From a virus (taxonomy: Duplodnaviria; Caudoviricetes): a stretch of DNA of 64,000 nucleotides. Made by a program: the position numbers and the translations under genes. The notes beneath the pieces are model-generated. The model saw only the letters and a program-made list of their open reading frames with translations, was not told where the DNA came from and searched no databases. Of the stretch, positions 18,286 through 64,000 are shown in pieces (position 1 is the first letter of the stretch; each line of letters opens with the position of its first letter). The stretch lies in the IMG/VR virus record IMGVR_UViG_3300031784_000002. One strand, 5' to 3'.

Positions 18286-18708
18286 ATGAAAACGTTTAAA
18301 GATTTTTGTGCAGAGGCATATTCTATTGATGAAATGGCAATGAATCCAAAGAGTCGTTTTGTTACTCAGGGTCAGATGAGAAATTATGAAAAAGATAGAA
18401 TTGGATCCCAGAGTTTTTCTGATAGAGGTGGATATGCAGGACTCAAAGCAGGTGGTGGCCAAGCAGCATTGAAAAAAGGAAGTAGTGTCAGTGATGTTCT
18501 TTATGCGGGACAAAAAGCAAAGCAAGCAAAGGCACAACAAGATTTTTCAAATAAAATAAACAGACCTACTCAACATCAATCTGGACCAGCAAAGAAACCA
18601 ATGGATGATTTTGCTGCTGGTGGTGGAAATGCTAAGATGAAATCAACTGGTATGACTAAAGATCAAGTGATTGCACTTGGAAAGAAAAACGTATCTAATC
18701 AAAAGTAA
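18286..18708 (+). CDS. Putative internal head protein (capsid-targeting-like N-terminus MKTFKDFCAE)
   Basis: The N-terminus resembles the T4 internal-protein CTS MKTYQEFIAE; late promoter CTAAATA at 18254; basic G/A/K-rich body with two AGGG.A..K.G repeats. Confidence 0.55.
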   Translation: MKTFKDFCAEAYSIDEMAMNPKSRFVTQGQMRNYEKDRIGSQSFSDRGGYAGLKAGGGQAALKKGSSVSDVLYAGQKAKQAKAQQDFSNKINRPTQHQSGPAKKPMDDFAAGGGNAKMKSTGMTKDQVIALGKKNVSNQK

Positions 18709-18709
18709 T

Positions 18710-20356
18710 ATGGAAAAACTCACCTTTAAAGAGTGGTCTATTCTTGCAGACCTAGAAACTATCGCACCTCTTGGAGAGGACTTTGAGTTTTCTATGGCTC
18801 GTGGAGAACTTAAGACTGCTCAGGCAGCTATTACAAGATTGATGACTAAACTTAAGGGTGAGGGAGATTTGGAGGCATGGGTGCAATCCAAAATCACTAA
18901 GGCCGCAGAATATCTTGACACCGTAGCCGACCATCTTTCTCATGGTGAGGATGATACAGAAAGAACGAAAGAAGTCAAGGAAGGTTTCAAAGGCCACAAG
19001 TCTGTAGAAGAAATTGCAAAAAAGCATAAAGTATCTCCATCGGTAATTCAAAAACAACTTGAGATGGGGATGAAAGTAGAACATGAGCATACAACAGATA
19101 ATGATGAGGCAATGGATATTGCCTTACAACATCTAGATGAAATTCCAAACTACTACTCCAAACTCAAGAAGATGGAGAAAGTAAAAGAGGAGTGGACAGA
19201 AATTCATGATGCAAATGGTAATACTTTTGCACATGTTGTTGATATCATTAAGGGATCTGATTATAAGTTCAAGAGTTTTACTGCACCAGTAAACGAGAAG
19301 TGTTGGGATGGTTATAAACAAGTTGGAATGAAGAAAAAAGGAAAAAAAGTAGTTCCTAATTGTGTGAAGGAGGATTTTATTGATGAAGCCAACAAGAGTG
19401 GTGATAGTTCTCTGCGTGACTGGTTTACTAAGAGTCGCGCTTCTGATGGCACCCCTGGTTGGGTTCAACTGGGTGGTAAATACGCAGGACAACCCTGTGC
19501 AAAACAACCAGGACAAACAACCAAACCAAAGTGCGGTTCAAGCAAAATGAAATCAGACCTCTCTGATAAAGAAGAGGAGAGTGCATTCCGTCGTAAGAAT
19601 CAGGAAGATCCAAATCCCGATAGAAAGGGTAAGGCTAAGATGGTTGCGACTGAAGAAAAGGATGCATGTTATTCAAAGGTAAAATCTCGTTATTCGGTTT
19701 GGCCTTCCGCATATGCATCTGGAGCACTAGTTAAGTGCCGTAAAGTCGGTGCAAAAAATTGGGGTAATAAGACTAAAAAGGAGTCTTTTGAACTTCAAGA
19801 AATGGGTGAAATTCAAAGATATTGTCCTAAGTGTAAAAAGAATGAGACGATGAAGGACTGTAGATATGGTGAGGGATATTGGAAAATGTTCTCACTTCCT
19901 GCATCATTAGCCCCAGATCCTTATGATCCCAATGATATTCATCCCGCTAATGAGGGAATGAGTTTTGAAATTGGTTCTGGTCATAAACAGGCGCAGAAAC
20001 AAGCAAAGATCAGAAATCTTGCAACAGGAACTAATAATCCCAATGAAAAGTCTGCTGCCCTCAGGAAACTAACTGGACCTTCACTTCCTCTTGCAGATTC
20101 AGTAATCCAACCAGGACAACTGACAAATGAGGACTATCAACGGATACAATCCACTGGAAATGTTTATACTATACTCTTCTCATGGAGAGGTAGACCGATG
20201 ATGAATCTCCAATTCTTTTTCCCAAACATGAAGAGACCATCAAAAGATGAAGTTAAAAAGGAAATTGAGAAGTTCTATCCTGGTGCAGTTATAATGCAAT
20301 GGTATCCAAGTCCTACTGATCCATCTAAACCAATTGTAGTGATTCCAGGTAATTGA
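18710..20356 (+). CDS. Modular hypothetical protein (DUF5661-like and other small modules), putative processed internal protein
   Basis: The ATG at 18710 is more plausible than the TTG at 18671. Short modules (GMKVEHEHT, KCWDGY..NCV, LRDWF...PKC, DACYSKVK...YASGALVKCRK) are joined by x-x-E linkers. Confidence 0.6.
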   Translation: MEKLTFKEWSILADLETIAPLGEDFEFSMARGELKTAQAAITRLMTKLKGEGDLEAWVQSKITKAAEYLDTVADHLSHGEDDTERTKEVKEGFKGHKSVEEIAKKHKVSPSVIQKQLEMGMKVEHEHTTDNDEAMDIALQHLDEIPNYYSKLKKMEKVKEEWTEIHDANGNTFAHVVDIIKGSDYKFKSFTAPVNEKCWDGYKQVGMKKKGKKVVPNCVKEDFIDEANKSGDSSLRDWFTKSRASDGTPGWVQLGGKYAGQPCAKQPGQTTKPKCGSSKMKSDLSDKEEESAFRRKNQEDPNPDRKGKAKMVATEEKDACYSKVKSRYSVWPSAYASGALVKCRKVGAKNWGNKTKKESFELQEMGEIQRYCPKCKKNETMKDCRYGEGYWKMFSLPASLAPDPYDPNDIHPANEGMSFEIGSGHKQAQKQAKIRNLATGTNNPNEKSAALRKLTGPSLPLADSVIQPGQLTNEDYQRIQSTGNVYTILFSWRGRPMMNLQFFFPNMKRPSKDEVKKEIEKFYPGAVIMQWYPSPTDPSKPIVVIPGN

Positions 20357-27900: not shown

Positions 27901-28551
27901 ATGAAACTAATTACCGAAGAAGTAACGAACGTAAAAATTATCAGCGAAGGAAAAGGCGCTGATAAAAAACTTTATATTGAAGGTGTATTCCTTCAAGGTG
28001 AGATTAAAAATAGAAACGGTAGAATGTATCCCATCACTACTCTATCTCGTGAAGTAAATCGTTATAATGAAAACTTTGTTGCAAAAGGTCGTGCTCTTGG
28101 CGAACTTGGTCATCCAGATGGACCAACTGTAAACCTTGATCGTGTTTCACATAAAATTACTTCTTTAACTCAAGAAGGTAATAATTTTATCGGTAAGGCA
28201 CAAATCCTCAATACTCCAATGGGTAAAATTGCATCTTCACTTCTTGATGAGGGTGTAATGCTTGGTGTTTCTTCTCGTGGTGTTGGATCACTCCAAACAA
28301 CCAGTGAAGGACATAAAGTTGTGGGTGAAGATTTTATGCTTGCTACTGCAGCTGATATCGTAGCTGATCCTTCAGCTCCTGATGCATTTGTTTCGGGAAT
28401 CATGGAAGGTAAAGAGTGGGTTTGGGAAGGAGGAATCCTTCGTGAACAACTTGCTTCCAGAACACAGAAGAGAATCAACACACTTGTTGATCAAAGAAAG
28501 CTAGATGAACAGAAGTTAAATCTGTTCAATGAGTTTTTATCAAATCTTTAA
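27901..28551 (+). CDS. g21: Prohead protease gp21
   Basis: MKLITEE, NRNGRMYP, ALGELGHP (His), GVSSRGVGS (Ser), ADIVADPSAPDA. Confidence 0.97.
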   Translation: MKLITEEVTNVKIISEGKGADKKLYIEGVFLQGEIKNRNGRMYPITTLSREVNRYNENFVAKGRALGELGHPDGPTVNLDRVSHKITSLTQEGNNFIGKAQILNTPMGKIASSLLDEGVMLGVSSRGVGSLQTTSEGHKVVGEDFMLATAADIVADPSAPDAFVSGIMEGKEWVWEGGILREQLASRTQKRINTLVDQRKLDEQKLNLFNEFLSNL

Positions 28552-28596: not shown

Positions 28597-29790
28597 ATGT
28601 CCCGTGGTAAGAATTTACAAGAAATGGAATCTGTTGCTACCCCCGGTCAGGGCGGTGGTGCAGGAAGCGGCACTTCACAATCCAAAACCGCTGTAAATGC
28701 TAATGCATCTGCACCGGCTTCCCCAGAAAAAAGTGCAACTCCAGTTGCAACTCCAGGTCAAACTGGTGCATGGGAAGATCTAGGAGGCCCAACTCCAGAA
28801 AATAGTCGTCCAGACGACAATTCCAATGCGTACAAAACCCCAGGTGCAACCCTTAAGCAAGTTAAGGATGTTGTAAATGCTAAAGCTTCTGCAGCTGATG
28901 CTCCTGCTACTTCTGCAACTCCAGTTGCAACACCTGGACAAGGTGGTGGAATGAAGGAAGAAGTAGAAGAAGATGAAGAGCTAGTAGAAGTTGAAGATGA
29001 AGAGGGTGGTGAAGAGGCCGAAGAAGAGGATGCGGAAGAAGTTGTAGAAGAAGATGTAGATTCCATCATCGATGAGGACGTAAATGCTCTTCTATCTGGT
29101 GAAGAAGAACTCTCCGAAGAATTTAGAGAGAAGGCAAAGCTAGTATTTGAAGCCGCCCTTCACGCCAAAACAAAAGAAATTCAATCAGTAATGGAAGAGC
29201 ACTATGCTGCTGCTCTTGCTGAAGAGATTGAAGAAATTAAACTAGAACTAACCGAGCGTGTTGATTCATACCTAGAGTATGTTTCATCCGAATGGTTAGA
29301 AGAGAATGCTCTCGCAGTTGAGAGTGGTCTCAAGACTGAGATCACCGAGTCCTTCATCAATGGTATGAAGGGACTTTTTGAAACACATTATGTATCAATG
29401 CCTGAAGAAAAATATGATGTTCTAGAGAGCATGGTAGAAAAACTTGATGAAATGGAGACAAAACTCAACGAGCAAATTCAAAAGAATATTGCTCTAAACA
29501 CGAAACTTGCTGAATCTTCTGCTGACAGAATTTTCAATCAGGTTTCCGAGGGTCTCGCGCTTTCCCAAAAGGATAAGCTTGCAAGCCTCGTAGAAAGTGT
29601 TGAGTTTGAGAGTGAAGCTGACTATTACCAGAAACTGGTAACTCTTAGGGAGTCGTACTTCCCGAGAAACGCTGGTATTCCAGCAAACGAGACGGAAAAT
29701 CTATCAGAAGAAGCGAACTTCCAGGAAGTGAATCATTCACCTTCTATGGACGCTTATCTACGTGCGCTTTCCAACGTTGCTAAAAAGTGA
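28597..29790 (+). CDS. g22: Prohead scaffold protein gp22
   Basis: EELSEEFREKAKLVFEAA, VDSYLEYV..EW, acidic coiled coil; synteny. Confidence 0.95.
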   Translation: MSRGKNLQEMESVATPGQGGGAGSGTSQSKTAVNANASAPASPEKSATPVATPGQTGAWEDLGGPTPENSRPDDNSNAYKTPGATLKQVKDVVNAKASAADAPATSATPVATPGQGGGMKEEVEEDEELVEVEDEEGGEEAEEEDAEEVVEEDVDSIIDEDVNALLSGEEELSEEFREKAKLVFEAALHAKTKEIQSVMEEHYAAALAEEIEEIKLELTERVDSYLEYVSSEWLEENALAVESGLKTEITESFINGMKGLFETHYVSMPEEKYDVLESMVEKLDEMETKLNEQIQKNIALNTKLAESSADRIFNQVSEGLALSQKDKLASLVESVEFESEADYYQKLVTLRESYFPRNAGIPANETENLSEEANFQEVNHSPSMDAYLRALSNVAKK

Positions 29791-29850: not shown

Positions 29851-31245
29851 ATGGACGGAATTAATTCACAAATGTTAATGGAGAAGTGGGCTCCAGTTCT
29901 AGACTTCGACGGTCTAGGCAACATCAAAGATTCCCACAGACGTGCAGTAACTGCACAACTTCTAGAGAACCAAGAAAGAGAACTCCGTGAATCTGCTGAG
30001 TTCCTTGGCGAAGCTTCCCCAACCAACTCTGCCGGTACTGGTGGTTTTAGTGGTGGTGCTACCGCTGGTGGTCCTGTTGCCGGTTTCGACCCAGTTCTAA
30101 TCAGCCTCATTCGTCGTGCAATGCCTAACCTCATTGCTTATGACATCTGTGGCGTTCAACCAATGAGTGGTCCTACTGGACTTATCTTCGCAATGCGTTC
30201 CCGCTACGATGGTCAGTCTGGTACTGAAACCTTCTTCGATGAAGTCGATACTACCTTCTCTGGTCAGAACAACAGCCGCAACCTTGCTAACGGATTCTCT
30301 GATGGTCTCGTTGGTTTCGGTACAACCAACCAGGATGGAACTAATCCTAACGTTCTCAACCCAGTTGGAACCGCAACAACCAACCCATCACCATATAACG
30401 TTGGTCAAGGTATGACCACTGGTGATTCGGAAGCTCTTGGAGATGCTGCTGCTAATGCCTTCAATCAGATGGCATTCAGCATCGAGAAAGTTACCGTAAC
30501 CGCTAAGTCACGTGCCCTCAAGGCTGAGTACTCACTAGAGCTCGCTCAAGACCTCAAGGCTATCCACGGTCTAAACGCAGAAGCAGAACTTGCTAACATT
30601 CTCTCCACTGAGATCCTCGCTGAAATCAACAGAGAAGTTATCAGAACCATCTATAAGGTTGCTGAGCAAGGTGCTGCTGTTAACACTGCTACCGCTGGTG
30701 TATTTGACCTCGACGTTGACTCCAATGGTCGTTGGTCAGTTGAGAAGTTCAAGGGTCTACTCTTCCAGATCGAGAGAGATGCAAACGCTATCGCTCAAAG
30801 AACTCGTAGAGGAAAGGGCAACACCATCATCTGCTCCGCAGACGTTGCTTCCGCTCTAACCATGGCTGGTGTACTTGATTACACTCCTGCACTCAACGCT
30901 AACCTCAATGTTGATGACACTGGTAACACCTTCGCTGGTGTTCTCCAAGGTAAGTATCGTGTATACATTGACCCATATGCTGCTAACGTTGCTGCTGATC
31001 AGTACTACGTTGTAGGTTATAAGGGTTCTAGCGCATATGACGCTGGTATCTTCTACTGCCCATATGTTCCTCTCCAGATGGTTCGTGCCGTCGGTCAGGA
31101 CACCTTCCAACCAAAAATTGGCTTCAAGACCCGTTATGGTATTGTTGCCAACCCATTTGCAGAAGGAACCGATCAGGGACTCGGAAGACTCCGCCTCAAT
31201 GCAAACCGTTACTACAGAAGAGTCAAGGTTTCCAACCTCATGTGA
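29851..31245 (+). CDS. g23: Major capsid protein gp23
   Basis: EKWAPVL, LIRRAMPNLIAYDICGVQPM, AKSRALKAEYSLELAQDLKAIHG, FQPKIGFKTRYG. Confidence 0.99.
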   Translation: MDGINSQMLMEKWAPVLDFDGLGNIKDSHRRAVTAQLLENQERELRESAEFLGEASPTNSAGTGGFSGGATAGGPVAGFDPVLISLIRRAMPNLIAYDICGVQPMSGPTGLIFAMRSRYDGQSGTETFFDEVDTTFSGQNNSRNLANGFSDGLVGFGTTNQDGTNPNVLNPVGTATTNPSPYNVGQGMTTGDSEALGDAAANAFNQMAFSIEKVTVTAKSRALKAEYSLELAQDLKAIHGLNAEAELANILSTEILAEINREVIRTIYKVAEQGAAVNTATAGVFDLDVDSNGRWSVEKFKGLLFQIERDANAIAQRTRRGKGNTIICSADVASALTMAGVLDYTPALNANLNVDDTGNTFAGVLQGKYRVYIDPYAANVAADQYYVVGYKGSSAYDAGIFYCPYVPLQMVRAVGQDTFQPKIGFKTRYGIVANPFAEGTDQGLGRLRLNANRYYRRVKVSNLM

Positions 31246-31859: not shown

Positions 31860-32274
31860 AATTCAAACCCTTTGGGAAGAAGATTCAAAAATTGATGAAG
31901 ACAATCTCCACACAGAATCCGTAAAAATTCCAAGTCTTCATGCAAAATATTATAAGATCTTTAATAATATTTTAACTCTTAAAAAAGCACAAGAGAACAA
32001 ATATAAGATTCTAAAGAAAGAAAAATGGCAGTATTACACTGGTAAAGCAGAACCAGATGTTTATATAGAAAAACCTTTTGATCATAAGGTACTTAAACCG
32101 GATTTAGACAAGTATTTGGATGCTGATGAAGACTTAATTAAGTGCCAGACTAAGATTGAGTATTATCAAATGATGCTCAATTATCTGGAGAGCATTCTTA
32201 AAACTATATTAAATAGAACATATCAGCTGAAAAATGCGATTGAGTGGCAGAAATTTATTAGAGGATATGACTGA
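31846..32274 (+). CDS. uvsY: Recombination mediator UvsY
   Basis: IPSLHAKY, YYTGKA, R.YQLKNAIEW.KF..G; synteny with uvsW. Confidence 0.9.
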   Translation: MNLDEIQTLWEEDSKIDEDNLHTESVKIPSLHAKYYKIFNNILTLKKAQENKYKILKKEKWQYYTGKAEPDVYIEKPFDHKVLKPDLDKYLDADEDLIKCQTKIEYYQMMLNYLESILKTILNRTYQLKNAIEWQKFIRGYD

Positions 32275-40114: not shown

Positions 40115-40134
40115 GGGGTATACCCCTCTTTTTT
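40113..40134 (+). terminator. Terminator after the cobT-like gene
   Basis: GAGGGG-TATA-CCCCTC-T6, followed directly by late promoter CTAAATA (40136). Confidence 0.85.
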
Positions 40135-40163
40135 ACTAAATACTTAAAAAAGTATTTGTAAAG

Positions 40164-41699
40164 ATGAACTCTAACGATTTTCAAAACCTAACTGAAGCTT
40201 ATAATCAAGTACATCAACTTGATGAAGTGTTAGACACTCCTGAAAAAGCGAATGAATATGCCAAAAAGAATGTAAAATCTATGGTTGGTGCTTTTGTTAA
40301 AGGTGCTGTTAACAAAGATATTAGTCAACTGAAAACCATAGAAAAAAGAAAAAGAGGAGCGGAACTGGGAAAAAGAAAGGCAGAAAGAAAGTCAGCAGAG
40401 GAAAAGAATGAAGAGTTTGAAACTTGGGTAAATGAACTTATGGAAGAGGGTTATGATCTCTCCGACTATACTTGGGAAGAGATGCATGAGTTCTATCTAG
40501 ATGAAGCAGAAGGTTCATACGGTGAAACTCCAAAGGCATACAGTGCAGCATCAAAGACCAAGATGACTGCAAAGAGAAAGCCTTTCCTCAAGAAAATGCT
40601 CAGAAGAACTAATCCTGCAGAAAGAAAGTCTGAGACTTCTCCAAGAAAAGGAATGACTGCTTCTGATAGGGAAGAAGCAAGAGCAGGTGATGCACATGGT
40701 TCACCTAGGGGTCATGATTACCCTTCACAGGGCCCTGGTGGAGTAACTAAGAATCCTAAGAAACTCCGTAAGCAAAAAGCAATGGGAGAGTTTGCTAAAG
40801 AAGAACTTGATGTCTTTGATGTAGTCCTTGAGTTCCTCCAAGTAGAAGGATACGCAGAAACTCTGGAAGAGGCAGAGTGGATGATGGCAAATGAACTAGA
40901 TGAGGAAACCATTGATGCAATCCTTGAAGCAGAAGGTTCTTACGGTAAGACACCCAAGGCAAGAGCAGCAATGGGTAAACTTGCTATTGCAAGACGTGAG
41001 AAACCTGCAAGTGAGTATTCGCAGAAAGGTGAGAAAACTAAAAAAGTAAAATCAATCGAAAAGCATACTCAGAGAATTGATAACGGTCCTGATGTAGGAA
41101 ATCGTGGTAAGAAATCTACTAAACCAAGATGGTCTGGGATGTTAGGCAAATCTGGTAGGGGTAAACTTGACCAAGATAGTAGAGATTATGCAAGAGATAG
41201 TGCTGTTGAGTATACTTCTGGCGGACACAAACCTGGTTCTGGTACTGTAACCAAGAACCCCAAGAAACTCCGTAAGCAAAAGGCTATGGGTGAGATTGGC
41301 GAAAGTTTTGACACATATGAATTTGTTTTGTGTCATCTTCTAGATGAGGGATATGCTTCAACCGAAGAAGCCGCAGATAAAATCATTCTCAACATGAGTG
41401 AAGCTTGGTTTGAAGATATTATGGAATTGAATCGTGTTGAAAAGGAAACTGGTATCAACACTAAAACTGGTAGACCAACTGCCAAAGGTGGCGCTAAGGA
41501 TGATAAAGCATATACTAGCGTAAAAAGAATGATGCGTAAAATGGAGGGAACTCCTGCGGGCCAAAGAAAAAAAGAACCAGGTAAAAAGCCACCTAAAGCT
41601 GGTGAATATGGCGGTCCAAGATCACCCGAACAAAAAGTTGCAAAACTCCGTGCAGACAAAAAACGCAGTGCAGATATGATGAGTTCTCGATTTGACTGA
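40164..41699 (+). CDS. Repeat protein with alternating acidic helical linkers and basic segments; putative processed internal head protein
   Basis: Three EGY-containing acidic repeats; duplicated AEGSYG.TPKA and TKNPKKLRKQKAMGE; late promoter upstream. Confidence 0.65.
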   Translation: MNSNDFQNLTEAYNQVHQLDEVLDTPEKANEYAKKNVKSMVGAFVKGAVNKDISQLKTIEKRKRGAELGKRKAERKSAEEKNEEFETWVNELMEEGYDLSDYTWEEMHEFYLDEAEGSYGETPKAYSAASKTKMTAKRKPFLKKMLRRTNPAERKSETSPRKGMTASDREEARAGDAHGSPRGHDYPSQGPGGVTKNPKKLRKQKAMGEFAKEELDVFDVVLEFLQVEGYAETLEEAEWMMANELDEETIDAILEAEGSYGKTPKARAAMGKLAIARREKPASEYSQKGEKTKKVKSIEKHTQRIDNGPDVGNRGKKSTKPRWSGMLGKSGRGKLDQDSRDYARDSAVEYTSGGHKPGSGTVTKNPKKLRKQKAMGEIGESFDTYEFVLCHLLDEGYASTEEAADKIILNMSEAWFEDIMELNRVEKETGINTKTGRPTAKGGAKDDKAYTSVKRMMRKMEGTPAGQRKKEPGKKPPKAGEYGGPRSPEQKVAKLRADKKRSADMMSSRFD

Positions 41700-41737
41700 G
41701 AATAAATAATTTATATTATTGATTGATTTATTGGGTT

Positions 41738-59885: not shown

Positions 59886-61145
59886 ATGAAGAATTTTACT
59901 CAGTTCCTCACTGAAGCTAGAGAAACCTCTGCATCTACAGAAGCCAAGAGACTTGGTTTAACTGGAGATGGTCACGGTGGTTGGTATGATAAGAATGGAG
60001 AGTTTGTTGCAAAAACTGTTGCTGGTAAACTAAAGTTCTTTGGTAGTGACAACACTCCAGGACAAAAGGATTCCCCATCACAATCAACTGCACAAGCAAC
60101 TCCACAACCTGCAGCCGCAGAAGTTCCTGCAACTGCCGCACAACCAACGCAACAAGTTTCTGCACCTTCATCAGAACAACCTGCACAACAACAAGTTGCA
60201 CCAGAACAACAACCTGAAGAAGTGCCAGTTCCAGAAGCGCCTGGTGTTGTTGTAGTATTTGGTAGATTCAATCCACCCACCATTGGTCACGAAAAACTTC
60301 TAAAGAGAGCCGCAAAGGAAGCGGAAAAGAGAGGTTACGAGTTAAGAATTTATCCTTCTAGATCACAAGACGCTAAAAAGAATCCTCTGACTCCACAAAT
60401 GAAGATCTCTTACATGCGTCAGATGTTCCCTGATTATGCTGGCAGTATTGTTGACGACAAGGGTGCAAAGACTATTTTCAATGTACTCACCGGTGCAAAT
60501 GGAGAAGGTCATACCAACATGATCATTATGGTTGGTCAAGATAGATTGGGGGAATTCCAAGGTTTAAGTCACAAGTATAATGGTGAACTTTATAATTATG
60601 ATCAACTTGAAGTAGTTTCTGCTGGAGATAGAGATCCAGATTCCGATGATGTAACTGGAATGTCTGCATCTAAACTTCGTCTTGCTGCAGCAGAGGGTGA
60701 CTTTAAGAAGTTCGCAAAAGGTGTTCCCGATACTCTTGGTAATACTGAGAAGATGGAACTTTTCAATGTTCTTCGTAGATCTATGAATATTGAAGAGGGG
60801 ACTGAAGTATGGGAAGTTGCTCCTAAACTAGATGAAGAAGCTCTTAGAGATGCATATCTAGTAGATCGCATTTATGAAGTTGGTAACCTTGTTGAAAATA
60901 TGAACACCGGTCTCAAAGGAGAAGTGATTCGTAGGGGAACAAACTATGTGATTTGTGTGAGTGAAGATGGAATCATGTTCAAATCTTGGTTGAAGGATCT
61001 TATTGAGAATCCTCATGAGATTGGTACTGATGAGTATAGAGAATACCTTCAGTCATTAACTCCAGGTCAAGAAGTTAAGAGTTACACTGGTGTAAAGATT
61101 GCATCTATTTACGATAAATTCCGTAAGGGCAAAAAGAATAAATAA
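59886..61145 (+). CDS. Cytidylyltransferase-like HIGH nucleotidyltransferase with CTS-like N-terminus
   Basis: FGRFNPPTIGHEKL (HIGH-like), SASKLR (KMSKS-like); N-terminus MKNFTQFLTEA. Confidence 0.8.
   Translation: MKNFTQFLTEARETSASTEAKRLGLTGDGHGGWYDKNGEFVAKTVAGKLKFFGSDNTPGQKDSPSQSTAQATPQPAAAEVPATAAQPTQQVSAPSSEQPAQQQVAPEQQPEEVPVPEAPGVVVVFGRFNPPTIGHEKLLKRAAKEAEKRGYELRIYPSRSQDAKKNPLTPQMKISYMRQMFPDYAGSIVDDKGAKTIFNVLTGANGEGHTNMIIMVGQDRLGEFQGLSHKYNGELYNYDQLEVVSAGDRDPDSDDVTGMSASKLRLAAAEGDFKKFAKGVPDTLGNTEKMELFNVLRRSMNIEEGTEVWEVAPKLDEEALRDAYLVDRIYEVGNLVENMNTGLKGEVIRRGTNYVICVSEDGIMFKSWLKDLIENPHEIGTDEYREYLQSLTPGQEVKSYTGVKIASIYDKFRKGKKNK
61137..61144 (+). promoter_or_regulatory. Late promoter AATAAATA for the terminal modular ORF
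   Basis: Near-consensus overlapping the upstream stop codon. Confidence 0.7.
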
Positions 61146-61170: not shown

Positions 61171-64000
61171 ATGGCTAGTTGGGAAGAATTTTCACGTATT
61201 GTTGCAGAAGCTAAATCTGTTAAGAAGTTAGATCCTGTCGGTCATGAAGATGACGACGTTGATAATGATGGTGATTCGGACTCTTCCGATACTTACCTCA
61301 AGAAGAGAAGAGCTACTGTTGGAGCTGCCATTGCTGCAGACAAGAAGAGAAAAGTTGAAGAAGCAAAACAACTAGATCCAGTTGGTAAAGAAGACAAAGA
61401 TATCGATAATGATGGTGATCACGATAAGTCTGATAAGTATCTTTTAAATCGTAGAAAAGTTAGATCAAAAATTATTGATCCTCAGGAAAGATTGAAGACT
61501 GATAGAGATATGTTTAATATCCCTAAGTCTGAACAGGAAGCTGCTCGTGAGAGAATTCTTGCGAAGACAAAGGCAAAGAGAATGAAAGAGGAAGTAGAAC
61601 AGATTGATGAAATTGCGCCTTTAGTTGCTGCTGGACTTGCTGCTGGTGGCGCCGCTCTTGCTGGTGCAGCTATTAATAGAGCAAAAAAAGCTGCAGATTC
61701 TGGAGTTGATGCTGCGAATAAAGGTCTAAAAGTTAAGAATCCTGGAACTGGTATCGCAGGTGCTGCATACGGAATGCAAAAAAGAAATAATGCATTAAAT
61801 GATGCAATGAAACAACTTCGACAGTCTTATGAATTTGAGGGTGAAATAGTTGATGAAGATAAAGAATACCGTCGTGAGATGGCAAAGGCTGCTGCAAGAG
61901 AAAGAGCAGAAGAGAAGAGATCTGAAGAGAACTATAGAACTAAAGGTAGAATTGGTAAAAAGAAAGCAGGTCCCAAGTTGAGTACAACTCCACATAGGGA
62001 ATCCGAATCAAAAAATTATGCTGATAAAGAAGTGGGTTCTATTAAACTATATGATAAACTTACAAAGAAAAATAAGAATGTTGTAGGTCTCGTTACTAAA
62101 GAAGAGAACGAGATTGAAGAAGGCATGTCCATGAAGGACTTCAAAGCAAATCGTCAGAAGAATAAAAGAAGAGCTGCTTCTGCCGATGCTGAGAAGAGAG
62201 GTCATGTAGGTAAGGAATGGTACAACAGTGGTAGAAAGTATTCTCCCGATGAAGCAAAGAGAAGTCGTGCAAACATGGATGATGAAGAAAGACGTACAAG
62301 ACATCGTAGTGCTGTAGATCCTGATAATGAGGATGATAATAATTACTCTGCAGACAAGACGAAGAATCCTAAGAAACTTCGCAAACAAAAAGCGATGGGA
62401 GAGGGATACCTTGCAGAGAAATCTCTAAGTAGAGCACAACAGAGATTCATGGGCATGGTTTATGCTGCAAAGAAAGGTGAAACTCCTGCATCACCTGAGG
62501 TTGCCAAGGCTGCATCTGGAATGAGTAAGAAAGCTGCAAGAGATTTTGCAAAGACAAAACATGAAGGTCTTCCAGAAAAGAAAGAAGAATTTTCTTTGGT
62601 GGATAGATTAGTCATGGAGTTTTCCCCATTAAGTGAAGGTAAACTTGATGATCTTCTTGCTGATATTCGTTCAGAAGATGATGGAAATAAAAAAAAACCT
62701 CAATCAAAAAAATCTGAACCTGTAAAAAAACCTCAAGCAAAAAAGTCTGAACCTGTAAAAAAGCCTCAAGCAAAAAAATCTGAATCAGAGAGAAAAGAAC
62801 AATCGAAAGAAGAAGTAAAAACCAGAAATACTGCAACTGAAAGAGCTGCAAGAACTTCTGCTGCTTCTAGGATTCGTGCTGCAAGAATTGCAAGAGAAAC
62901 TGAAAAGGAAAAAGAAGCCGCTAGGACTGAAAGACAACGTGAAAGAATGAGTTATGCTGAGAAAAATAAAGAATCTAAGGCAAAACAAAAAGAGTTAGAG
63001 AGTAAGAAAAAAGAGGAATCTAGCGCAGCTAAAGCAAAACAAAAAGAGGACGATAAAAAAAGAAAGGAACAAGCTAGTGCCGCAAAAGAATCAGCAAAAG
63101 CAAAACAAAAAGAAGCAAAAGACAGGCAAAGTGAATTAGAAAAAAAGGAAAGAGAGAAAAAGAATCAACTGAAAGCAAAAGAGGATTCTAGAAAACAGAG
63201 AAGATCTGAATTGGCTCGAGATGTTAAGTCTGCTTGGAGTGGATCAACAAAAGTTGCTGGTGATAAAAAAGATACTGAAGCAGTAGCTGCAGGTATGAGT
63301 AATGTGGGAAGTTTAGTATCTGGTGTTGCTAAAACTGGACTTGCTCTTGGAAAATATGCTTATAAGAAGGCAAAAGAAAAAAGAGCGGAGAAAACATCAG
63401 AAACTCCTAGTTCAAATCAACCAGAAAAAAAGGAACCAACAAAACCAGAGGCACCACAATCCACTAGTAGTGCAACTCAAAAAGCTCCTACTACAACAAA
63501 ACCAGATACGACTCAGAAAAAGTTAACTGGAACTCCAGAGAGAACAAAGTTGACTGCAACTCCAGAAAGAAAAAAATTAGTTCCATCAACAAAACGACTT
63601 CCTCCTGCAGGTCAAACAACTACAAATGCTTCTCCGAAAAGAGAAACTGGAATGACATTGGGACAAAGAGCTAGAAGAAATCCAGCATTGAAGTCCGCAT
63701 TAATGAAAAATAGAATGGAAGAGTATTCAAATTGGAGAGAGGAGTTTATTTTTGAAGTAGACGATCAAACAGTACAAAATCAAAAACAAAAAGTTATTGA
63801 TGTTTCCAAAAAGAAGAATAAAATTGAAATTAATCCAACAATGAGTGAAGGATGTGGTTGTGATGAAAAAGAAAATGAAAAGGAAACTCCAAAAAAAGAT
63901 ATGAGAGATTTACCTACTAAAGTAAATCTTTTGAAAACCAAACTAAGATCAGCGGGAGTTAGAAATCCTATTGTAATGGTTGGAGTTAAAGAGGATTGGC
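61171..64000 (+). CDS. Large modular K/E-rich protein, 3'-partial (at least 943 aa; absent from the ORF track because no stop lies in the window)
   Basis: Translated by hand in frame 1 with no stop to 64000: MASWEEFSRIVAE..., two DPVGxEDxDxDNDGD modules, a DUF3008-like SRAQQRFMGMVYAAKKG...DFAKTKHEGLPEK module, TKNPKKLRKQKAMGE. Confidence 0.85.
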   Translation, partial: MASWEEFSRIVAEAKSVKKLDPVGHEDDDVDNDGDSDSSDTYLKKRRATVGAAIAADKKRKVEEAKQLDPVGKEDKDIDNDGDHDKSDKYLLNRRKVRSKIIDPQERLKTDRDMFNIPKSEQEAARERILAKTKAKRMKEEVEQIDEIAPLVAAGLAAGGAALAGAAINRAKKAADSGVDAANKGLKVKNPGTGIAGAAYGMQKRNNALNDAMKQLRQSYEFEGEIVDEDKEYRREMAKAAARERAEEKRSEENYRTKGRIGKKKAGPKLSTTPHRESESKNYADKEVGSIKLYDKLTKKNKNVVGLVTKEENEIEEGMSMKDFKANRQKNKRRAASADAEKRGHVGKEWYNSGRKYSPDEAKRSRANMDDEERRTRHRSAVDPDNEDDNNYSADKTKNPKKLRKQKAMGEGYLAEKSLSRAQQRFMGMVYAAKKGETPASPEVAKAASGMSKKAARDFAKTKHEGLPEKKEEFSLVDRLVMEFSPLSEGKLDDLLADIRSEDDGNKKKPQSKKSEPVKKPQAKKSEPVKKPQAKKSESERKEQSKEEVKTRNTATERAARTSAASRIRAARIARETEKEKEAARTERQRERMSYAEKNKESKAKQKELESKKKEESSAAKAKQKEDDKKRKEQASAAKESAKAKQKEAKDRQSELEKKEREKKNQLKAKEDSRKQRRSELARDVKSAWSGSTKVAGDKKDTEAVAAGMSNVGSLVSGVAKTGLALGKYAYKKAKEKRAEKTSETPSSNQPEKKEPTKPEAPQSTSSATQKAPTTTKPDTTQKKLTGTPERTKLTATPERKKLVPSTKRLPPAGQTTTNASPKRETGMTLGQRARRNPALKSALMKNRMEEYSNWREEFIFEVDDQTVQNQKQKVIDVSKKKNKIEINPTMSEGCGCDEKENEKETPKKDMRDLPTKVNLLKTKLRSAGVRNPIVMVGVKEDW
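62692..62787 (+). repeat. 33-bp coding tandem repeat, about 2.9 copies (KKPQ[SA]KKSEPV)
   Basis: Units at 62692, 62725 and 62758. Confidence 0.85.

Follow-up and report, generated by a model that had tools for sequence, protein, structure and literature searches.

What is the role of a phage protein in which acidic helical segments alternate with strongly basic ones, and is such a protein made to be taken apart? The question is raised by an open reading frame (ORF) at 40164..41699 on the plus strand of IMG/VR virus record IMGVR_UViG_3300031784_000002, a stretch of 64,000 nucleotides (nt) that we call the window. The ORF is the coding sequence of a putative modular precursor of 511 amino acids (aa), designated P0001, and the window itself is from a T4-like cyanomyovirus, an uncultured phage of lake water. 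T4-like cyanophages are among the commonest viruses of lakes and oceans, and to our knowledge almost nothing is known of what their heads contain besides DNA. We propose that P0001 is a late polyprotein, targeted to the head core and cut by the gp21-type prohead protease into small basic head proteins. This reading, which is drawn from the comparison of sequences, we hold to be probable, with room for serious doubt.

P0001 consists of a leader followed by four basic segments interleaved with three acidic helical modules, here called EGY modules, and all of its parts are read from the plus strand. The leader region (aa 1-21; 40164..40226) holds two L-x-E sites, LTE11|A and LDE21|V, the bar marking an actual or predicted point of cleavage here and below; the EAY-type leader proper is made up of the first 11 residues. 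Basic module 1 (aa 22-82, VLDTPEKANEY...; 40227..40409) has a net charge of +8 and is followed by EGY module A (aa 83-114; 40410..40505), with a net charge of -13 and the end LDE|A. Cargo module 1 (aa 115-209; 40506..40790; net charge +13) runs from AEGSYGETPKA to TKNPKKLRKQKAMGE and leads into EGY module B (aa 210-255; 40791..40928; net charge -15), which ends in ILE|A. Cargo module 2 (aa 256-377; 40929..41294; net charge +18) is framed in the same way, by AEGSYGKTPKA and TKNPKKLRKQKAMGE. EGY module C (aa 378-421; 41295..41426; net charge -11) begins after IGE|S and ends in IME|L, and the C-terminal basic module (aa 422-511, LNRVEKETG ... MSSRFD; 41427..41699, stop codon included) has a net charge of +14.

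A first-pass annotation, made from the letters of the sequence alone, had described three acidic helical repeats alternating with basic segments, and this description is borne out: a hidden Markov model (HMM) of the EGY family matches P0001 three times, with domain E values of 2e-18, 5e-22 and 1e-21, the modules on either side are of opposite net charge, and no other ORF of the window is matched. The linkers likewise end in [LI]-x-E, as had been claimed, at LDE114, ILE255 and IME421. In an AlphaFold2 model built on a 44-sequence alignment, the mean predicted local distance difference test score (pLDDT) is 63.6; the acidic modules are helical, with pLDDT values of 80-92, and the basic segments are mostly of low confidence. 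Searches of general collections returned little. P0001 has no match in Pfam, including none to the T4_CASP domain (PF25623), nothing in a PDB sequence search at E <= 1, and nothing in a Foldseek search against the PDB at E <= 0.001; when cargo module 2 was searched against the ESM Atlas, the only matches were to unnamed viral clusters and scored too low to be useful. The only PHROG matches, to phrog 3708 and 27516, fall on the acidic module, and both are of unknown function.

The frames of the two cargo modules, AEGSYG.TPKA and TKNPKKLRKQKAMGE alike, are duplicated at the level of DNA, which confirms another of the early observations. The repeat 40502-40538 versus 40925-40961 spans 37 nt at 86% identity, and 40735-40794 versus 41239-41298 spans 60 nt at 83%; between these the interiors of cargo 1 and cargo 2 have almost wholly diverged while the frames have been retained. 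Over the 45 nt that code for the 15-residue TKNPKKLRKQKAMGE, 6 positions distinguish the two P0001 copies, and a third copy, at 62359..62403 (plus strand), differs from them at 5 and 9 nt. Since every one of these differences is synonymous, we see here purifying selection on the TKNPKKLRKQKAMGE peptide and not just recent copying. The third copy lies inside a long, presumably late ORF (61171-63999, plus strand) that leaves the window and encodes at least 943 aa of basic/acidic low-complexity sequence, beginning with the leader MASWEEFSRIVAE|A and preceded by AATAAATA. By eye, the N-terminal part of this product is like S-SCSM1 gp92, annotated as a 'virion protein', with which it has a LDPVGKED-DVDNDG-type stretch in common.

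One indication that P0001 is cut comes from its joints. The T4 protease gp21 cuts after Glu in L/I-X-E (PMC9026906). The T4 major capsid protein gp23 is made as a precursor with FLTE65|AEIGG, and the mature PDB chains begin at AEIGG, 13 residues before IAAGQTS; where T4 has the maturation site FLTE65|A66, the gp23 gene of the window (29851..31245, plus strand) encodes FLGE54|A55, and a related contig has MLTE|A. P0001 has ten [LI]-x-E triplets, each of them in the leader or in an acidic module; the 368 basic residues are free of them. Across the family, [LIMV]-x-E-[AGSE] precedes EGSYG in 91 of 91 non-redundant contexts, with D, L, Y, Q, N or M at P2. An [LIVM]-x-E likewise stands before the profile-defined start of basic module 1 in 19/19 non-redundant family instances, of the cargo in 105/108 and of the C-terminal module in 45/46, and this holds whichever module lies upstream. 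Variants of module B with other ends keep the boundary site, as IIGE|A, ILDE|A or ELDE|A. Across 94 non-redundant cargo segments [LI]-x-E is found 0 times, where shuffling leads one to expect about 25 and the minimum of 500 shuffles was 15, a figure that is not a clean probability because the sequences are related. At the other end of the cargo, many copies of the C-terminal frame either have [IL]-x-E|S behind them or close the protein. In the relative P0194 the cargo frame directly abuts the C-terminal module, as AMGE|ATRYEKETG, a hint that M-G-E could be a joint in its own right.

Joints of this kind could be explained without cleavage. P0001 might be packaged uncut, or lose only its leader, and lie on the DNA as a polyampholyte of beads on a string, the [LI]-x-E at each joint being no more than helix-end or module-frame residues. 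The AlphaFold2 helices do span joints (H104-115 and H247-258), the internal proteins of T4 are cut only once, beside the capsid-targeting sequence (CTS), and an xE-AEGSYG block could be inherited as a single unit. An uncut chain fits poorly with the presence of the same [LIVM]-x-E before three types of module that are unrelated to one another, where the P2 residue takes many forms and the upstream partners vary. The complete avoidance of the triplet in cargo segments, and the identity of the joint motif with the gp23 maturation site in both T4 and the window phage, also argue against this reading, which we consider unlikely.

If P0001 is cut by gp21, where would cleavage begin? Its leader, MNSNDFQNLTE|A, is 11 residues long. 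Among 141 non-redundant family N-termini the leader has this length in 124 and Leu at P3 in 135, with P2 variable, and the consensus is M-D-x-K-x-L-x-x-L-x-E|A-Y-x-x-V. The first-pass annotation had listed a predicted peptide start at VLDTP and missed LTE11|A, the end of this conserved leader and the likelier first cut; LDE21|V is retained as a second site. P0001 has a putative N-terminal propeptide that ends in L/I-x-E and falls within the T4-type range of ~10-19 residues. The CTS of T4 is MKTYQEFIAE, and in three relatives (P0194, P0186 and P0246) the family modules follow MK-x-F-x-x-F-[LI]-x-E, which is the T4 CTS pattern; leaders are interchangeable in this sense.

A leader of the T4 type is also present elsewhere in the window. 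An NMNAT/cytidylyltransferase-like gene (59886-61145, plus strand), with AATAAATA upstream, starts with MKNFTQFLTE|A, close to the T4 CTS MKTYQEFIAE|A, and in S-SCSM1 the homologous protein, which is reported to be a virion protein, has MKSFLQFLKE|A at its start. From these N-termini the window product looks like a head-packaged enzyme of NAD metabolism.

A tie between the family and the head core is provided by the relative P0111. This protein reads, in order, an EAY leader, YIDE|AEGSYG, a cargo cassette, KAMGE and the scaffold domain T4_CASP (PF25623, E = 4e-69), and its gene lies directly upstream of gp23 on its contig. The cargo cassette is 78% identical to P0001 aa 256-377 and the scaffold part 49% identical to the gp22-type scaffold protein of the window (28597..29790, plus strand; phrog_237, E = 2e-97). 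In the phage of P0111 at least, the cargo cassette belongs to the scaffold protein itself. The variable N-terminal ~120 aa of window gp22 hold three ~ATPVATPGQ(G/T)G repeats and then a poly-acidic tract, and the cargo cassette of P0111 occupies the part of gp22 in which these repeats lie. A complex prediction for gp22 aa 150-397 with P0001 aa 1-120 gave a score of 0.00; it was run without controls and speaks neither for nor against docking.

A link to the virion is offered by S-SCSM1 gp89 (QFG06346.1), which has the same leader with a type-B EGY module and is annotated as a 'virion protein'. The S-SCSM1 paper describes virion proteins that mass spectrometry detected in CsCl-purified particles; the supplements to the papers on S-CREM1 and S-SCSM1 contain no statement on whether peptides of ORF219 or ORF89 were seen.

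The fusion in P0111 could also mean that P0001 is itself an accessory scaffold or core protein, comparable to T4 gp22, gp67 and gp68, which builds or sizes the prohead and is then degraded and expelled, with no cargo delivered. There, a gp22 scaffold protein has the cassette as its N-terminal part; the acidic helical modules are like scaffold in composition, and T4 core proteins are cut to many fragments that exit the head (PMC9026906). Against such a fate, the basic modules are free of cutting sites, so that pieces of 60-120 residues would stay; the annotation of one relative places it in mature, purified virions, and the gene is not universal, the EGY profile being blank in Syn9 and S-PM2, unlike what is expected of an essential core component. 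A purely scaffolding role therefore seems to us decidedly unlikely.

The genome around P0001 includes the presumed processing enzyme. The window carries terminase gp17, sheath, tube, portal, gp21, gp22 and gp23, the gp21-type prohead protease being encoded at 27901..28551 (plus strand; phrog_207 head maturation protease, E = 8e-83). After gp23 come UvsW, gp47/46, a CobT-like peptidase, the P0001 gene, two ORFs and CobS, and then gp45/44, gp43, UvsX, gp41 and the NMNAT-like gene between two large ORFs. Directly after the stop codon of the CobT-like/peptidase gene, a terminator-like hairpin, GGGGTATACCCC with a T run (40115..40134, plus strand), can be read from the sequence, and it sets the P0001 gene apart from its upstream neighbour. 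It is followed by a late-promoter-like motif, ACTAAATA (40135..40142, plus strand), 29 nt before the P0001 ATG. NNTAAATA is found 20-43 nt upstream of structural genes and of the NMNAT cluster, and stands before only one replication/repair gene start, that of a helicase ORF at 32234. For TAAATA, 16 of 49 sites are within 60 nt upstream of 41 listed starts, against ~2 expected from length. Exact TATAAATA is not enriched over the whole window (5 found versus 4.87 expected), so that only its position before late genes is informative. Taken with this placement, ACTAAATA would be a T4-type late promoter for P0001. In one RNA run, assembled contigs cover part of the stretch, sparsely and at low depth, with early and late genes represented alike, so that the run carries no information on expression, transcript starts or strand.

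Right behind the P0001 stop codon, at 41701-41708, there is a AATAAATA, ~37 nt before the in-frame ATG 41738 of an ORF (41723/41738-42700, plus strand) that has no family match; this ORF may also be late-expressed. At a distance, just upstream of terminase gp17, lies an ORF of 561 aa (18671-20356, plus strand; DUF5661, phrog_727), whose product has a CW-x-GYKQVGMK...VPNCV motif that P0072 and P0075, two long members of the family, also have. In S-SZBM1 the homologue of P0001 is in a comparable place, upstream of the large-terminase gene.

The position of the gene, between CobT-like and CobS genes and outside the structural block, invites the view that P0001 never enters the virion and acts late in the cytoplasm, binding DNA or RNA, for instance to condense or protect replicated phage DNA, its repeats being ordinary domain duplication. 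High positive charge and KKLRKQK-type motifs would suit such a role. It does not accommodate the scaffold fusion of P0111, the T4-type CTS on relatives, the S-SCSM1 relative annotated as a virion protein, or the relatives located inside structural or NMNAT virion-protein clusters, and we regard it as very improbable.

How general is this arrangement? More than 1000 proteins in 90% clusters match P0001, and in a 50%-identity library 2414 representative clusters match its family at E <= 0.001. Members are made of the same modules, which differ in number and order. Family composition was counted over 246 relatives: EGY and cargo occur together in 158, cargo without EGY in 18 and EGY without cargo in 52, and leaders are of the same kind as that of P0001 in 159 and of the T4 type in 3. 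Cargo without any acidic module is found in P0194 and P0186, which have the T4-type leader, and in the scaffold fusion P0111; the acidic modules therefore cannot be essential for targeting. The C-terminal module of P0001 is common to S-CRM01 g291, P0194 and P0186. One long member, in an alignment of 50 such members, has an S-AdoMet lyase domain (PF23780, E = 7e-8).

The phages closest to the window among those in culture are freshwater and estuarine Synechococcus phages, and the stretch itself is present in runs of 15 studies (freshwater, lake-water or 'fungus' metagenome), of which 3 runs are maybe its source. Among cultured phages the AEGSYG cargo is found in S-SZBM1, S-CREM1 and DSL-LC02, cargo module 2 being 92.7% identical to S-SZBM1_194. 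An HMM-based enumeration of the EGY family across cyanophages had been suggested; the module turns up at four places in S-CRM01 and also in S-SCSM1 and P-SSM2, and the profile has no match in Syn9 or S-PM2. A search of five phage records with phrog_3708 returned nothing, even where known relatives exist, and is thus insensitive. The location of the gene varies: it lies between terminase genes in S-SZBM1, adjoins NMNAT in S-CREM1 and S-SCSM1, and is within the gp41-MazG-NMNAT cluster on two metagenome contigs.

Two cultured phages also carry the modules in other formats. P-SSM2 encodes PSSM2_140 (T4-GC 136, L017 3063-3218), a free-standing protein of 51 aa that is essentially one type-C EGY-like module (..LIEEKYAVDAEAADKII..); its gene, with GATAAATA upstream, is between uvsY and uvsW. 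The existence of a free-standing EGY-like protein implies that the module has some role of its own. In S-CRM01, three small consecutive genes downstream of psbA, g95-g94-g93 (L016 82967-83861, minus strand), encode an EAY-type leader (g95, with TATAAATA upstream) and, in g94 and g93, an EGY module with a basic tail each. Together they look like one family polyprotein in pieces.

The exchange of modules allows a more ambitious proposal, that of a combinatorial system of head-cargo cassettes. Each variable basic peptide would have an invariant handle at either end, AEGSYGxTPKA flanking the protease site on its P' side and TKNPKKLRKQKAMGE closing the C terminus, and would be shuffled among polyproteins, scaffold proteins and CTS-led genes; freed by gp21, these peptides would be injected along with the DNA as fast-evolving effectors of host takeover or anti-defence, the invariant 15-mer TKNPKKLRKQKAMGE acting as a signal for retention, DNA anchoring or ejection. 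We put this forward as a possibility, and a doubtful one.

Several observations weigh against the processed-precursor reading that we prefer. The freedom of the basic residues from [LI]-x-E is not significant in P0001 alone (1.36 expected, P = 0.23), so that site avoidance is convincing only across the family; the family statistics in turn use related sequences, and independence is overstated. [LI]-x-E is also frequent in acidic helical sequence generally. The passage from cargo to acidic module is canonical after cargo 2 (IGE|S), but cargo 1 offers only MGE|F, with Met at P3. Apart from its length, a single Phe and an end in L-x-E|A, the leader of P0001 bears no resemblance to the T4 CTS. S-SCSM1 gp89 is without AEGSYG cargo, and its virion status comes from the annotation of the record. 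Finally, the P0001 gene sits between the CobT-like gene and cobS, outside the gp41-MazG-NMNAT cluster that is usual for its relatives.

With these reservations, we envisage the following course of events. P0001 would be expressed late as a precursor and built into the prohead core, with the gp22-type scaffold as its presumed partner and the leader MNSNDFQNLTE|A probably in the role of the T4 CTS. The phage's own gp21-type protease would then cut after the Glu of L/I-x-E at every module boundary. The acidic EGY modules, which contain further internal L/I-x-E sites, are probably spacers that are degraded and lost in the manner of T4 core proteins, whereas the basic modules, having no such sites inside them, would survive as small basic proteins of ~7 to 14 kDa beside the packaged DNA. 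Four products are expected, namely both AEGSYG...KAMGE cassettes, basic module 1 and the C-terminal module LNRVEKETG...MSSRFD, and they may enter the host together with the DNA. What is observed is the architecture of P0001, the joint rule across the family, the scaffold fusion and the annotation of a relative as a virion protein. We infer that transcription is late, that the leader targets the precursor and that cleavage follows, as well as what becomes of the products and what they do; that they bind DNA, are retained or are injected is judged from the analogy with T4 and from charge alone. The early suggestion that gp21 releases the basic pieces has thus gained support of an indirect kind, from the joints of the family, the avoidance of sites in the cargo, the gp23 sites, the gp22 fusion, the virion-annotated relative and the late-promoter-like motif. 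Its further ideas, that the acidic linkers may neutralise the cargo and may dock on the scaffold, and that the products may condense DNA or serve as effectors, stay conjectural.

Should this reading be correct, T4-like cyanophages package and cleave a shuffled assortment of small basic proteins, the T4 internal-protein principle is widened from one protein cut once to cassette polyproteins, and several unexplained virion proteins of cyanophage proteomes are accounted for. It predicts exact N-termini, which can be checked in existing mass-spectrometry data. A full-text literature search gave no paper that links cyanophages to a capsid-targeting sequence or to processed internal proteins.

Among known systems, the true homologues of P0001 are S-SCSM1 gp89, S-CRM01 g291, S-CREM1_219 and S-SZBM1_194, which share its leader, EGY, cargo or C-terminal module; they are annotated as hypothetical or virion proteins, and their module content and genome position vary by phage. 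The giant phages phiKZ and SPN3US offer a more distant parallel: their inner-body and ejection proteins are internal to the head and are cut after Glu at short motifs, some of them at several places (PMC9026906). The gp21-like protease of those phages, however, has another motif and acts on other families in another phage group, and no alternating grammar of acidic and basic cassettes is described for them in the text consulted. The acidic modules of P0001 are like the T4 core proteins gp22, gp67 and gp68 in being acidic and helical, with several L/I-x-E sites and the expectation that they are cut small, and one relative, P0111, is fused to the gp22 scaffold domain. In contrast to the T4 core proteins, P0001 has no T4_CASP domain, and the greater part of it is basic sequence in which no cutting sites occur.

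The closest functional counterpart is the set of T4 internal proteins (IPs). Each of the two systems is tied to a head of the T4 type, one with gp21, gp22 and gp23, and each has a short N-terminal leader that ends in L/I-x-E|A. In both, small basic non-structural products are predicted to lie beside the DNA, and the part behind the leader evolves in a mix-and-match fashion. P0001 has no sequence homology to any of IPI, IPII and IPIII by the Pfam, PHROG, PDB and Foldseek searches, and its leader is of the conserved EAY type as against the MKTYQEFIAE of the T4 IPs, which are single proteins cut once; P0001 strings four basic modules and three acidic ones together, each joint holding a predicted site. 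By analogy, then, P0001 would work in the way of the T4 internal proteins and their CTS without being homologous to them, and would differ as a multi-cassette polyprotein with a leader type of its own.

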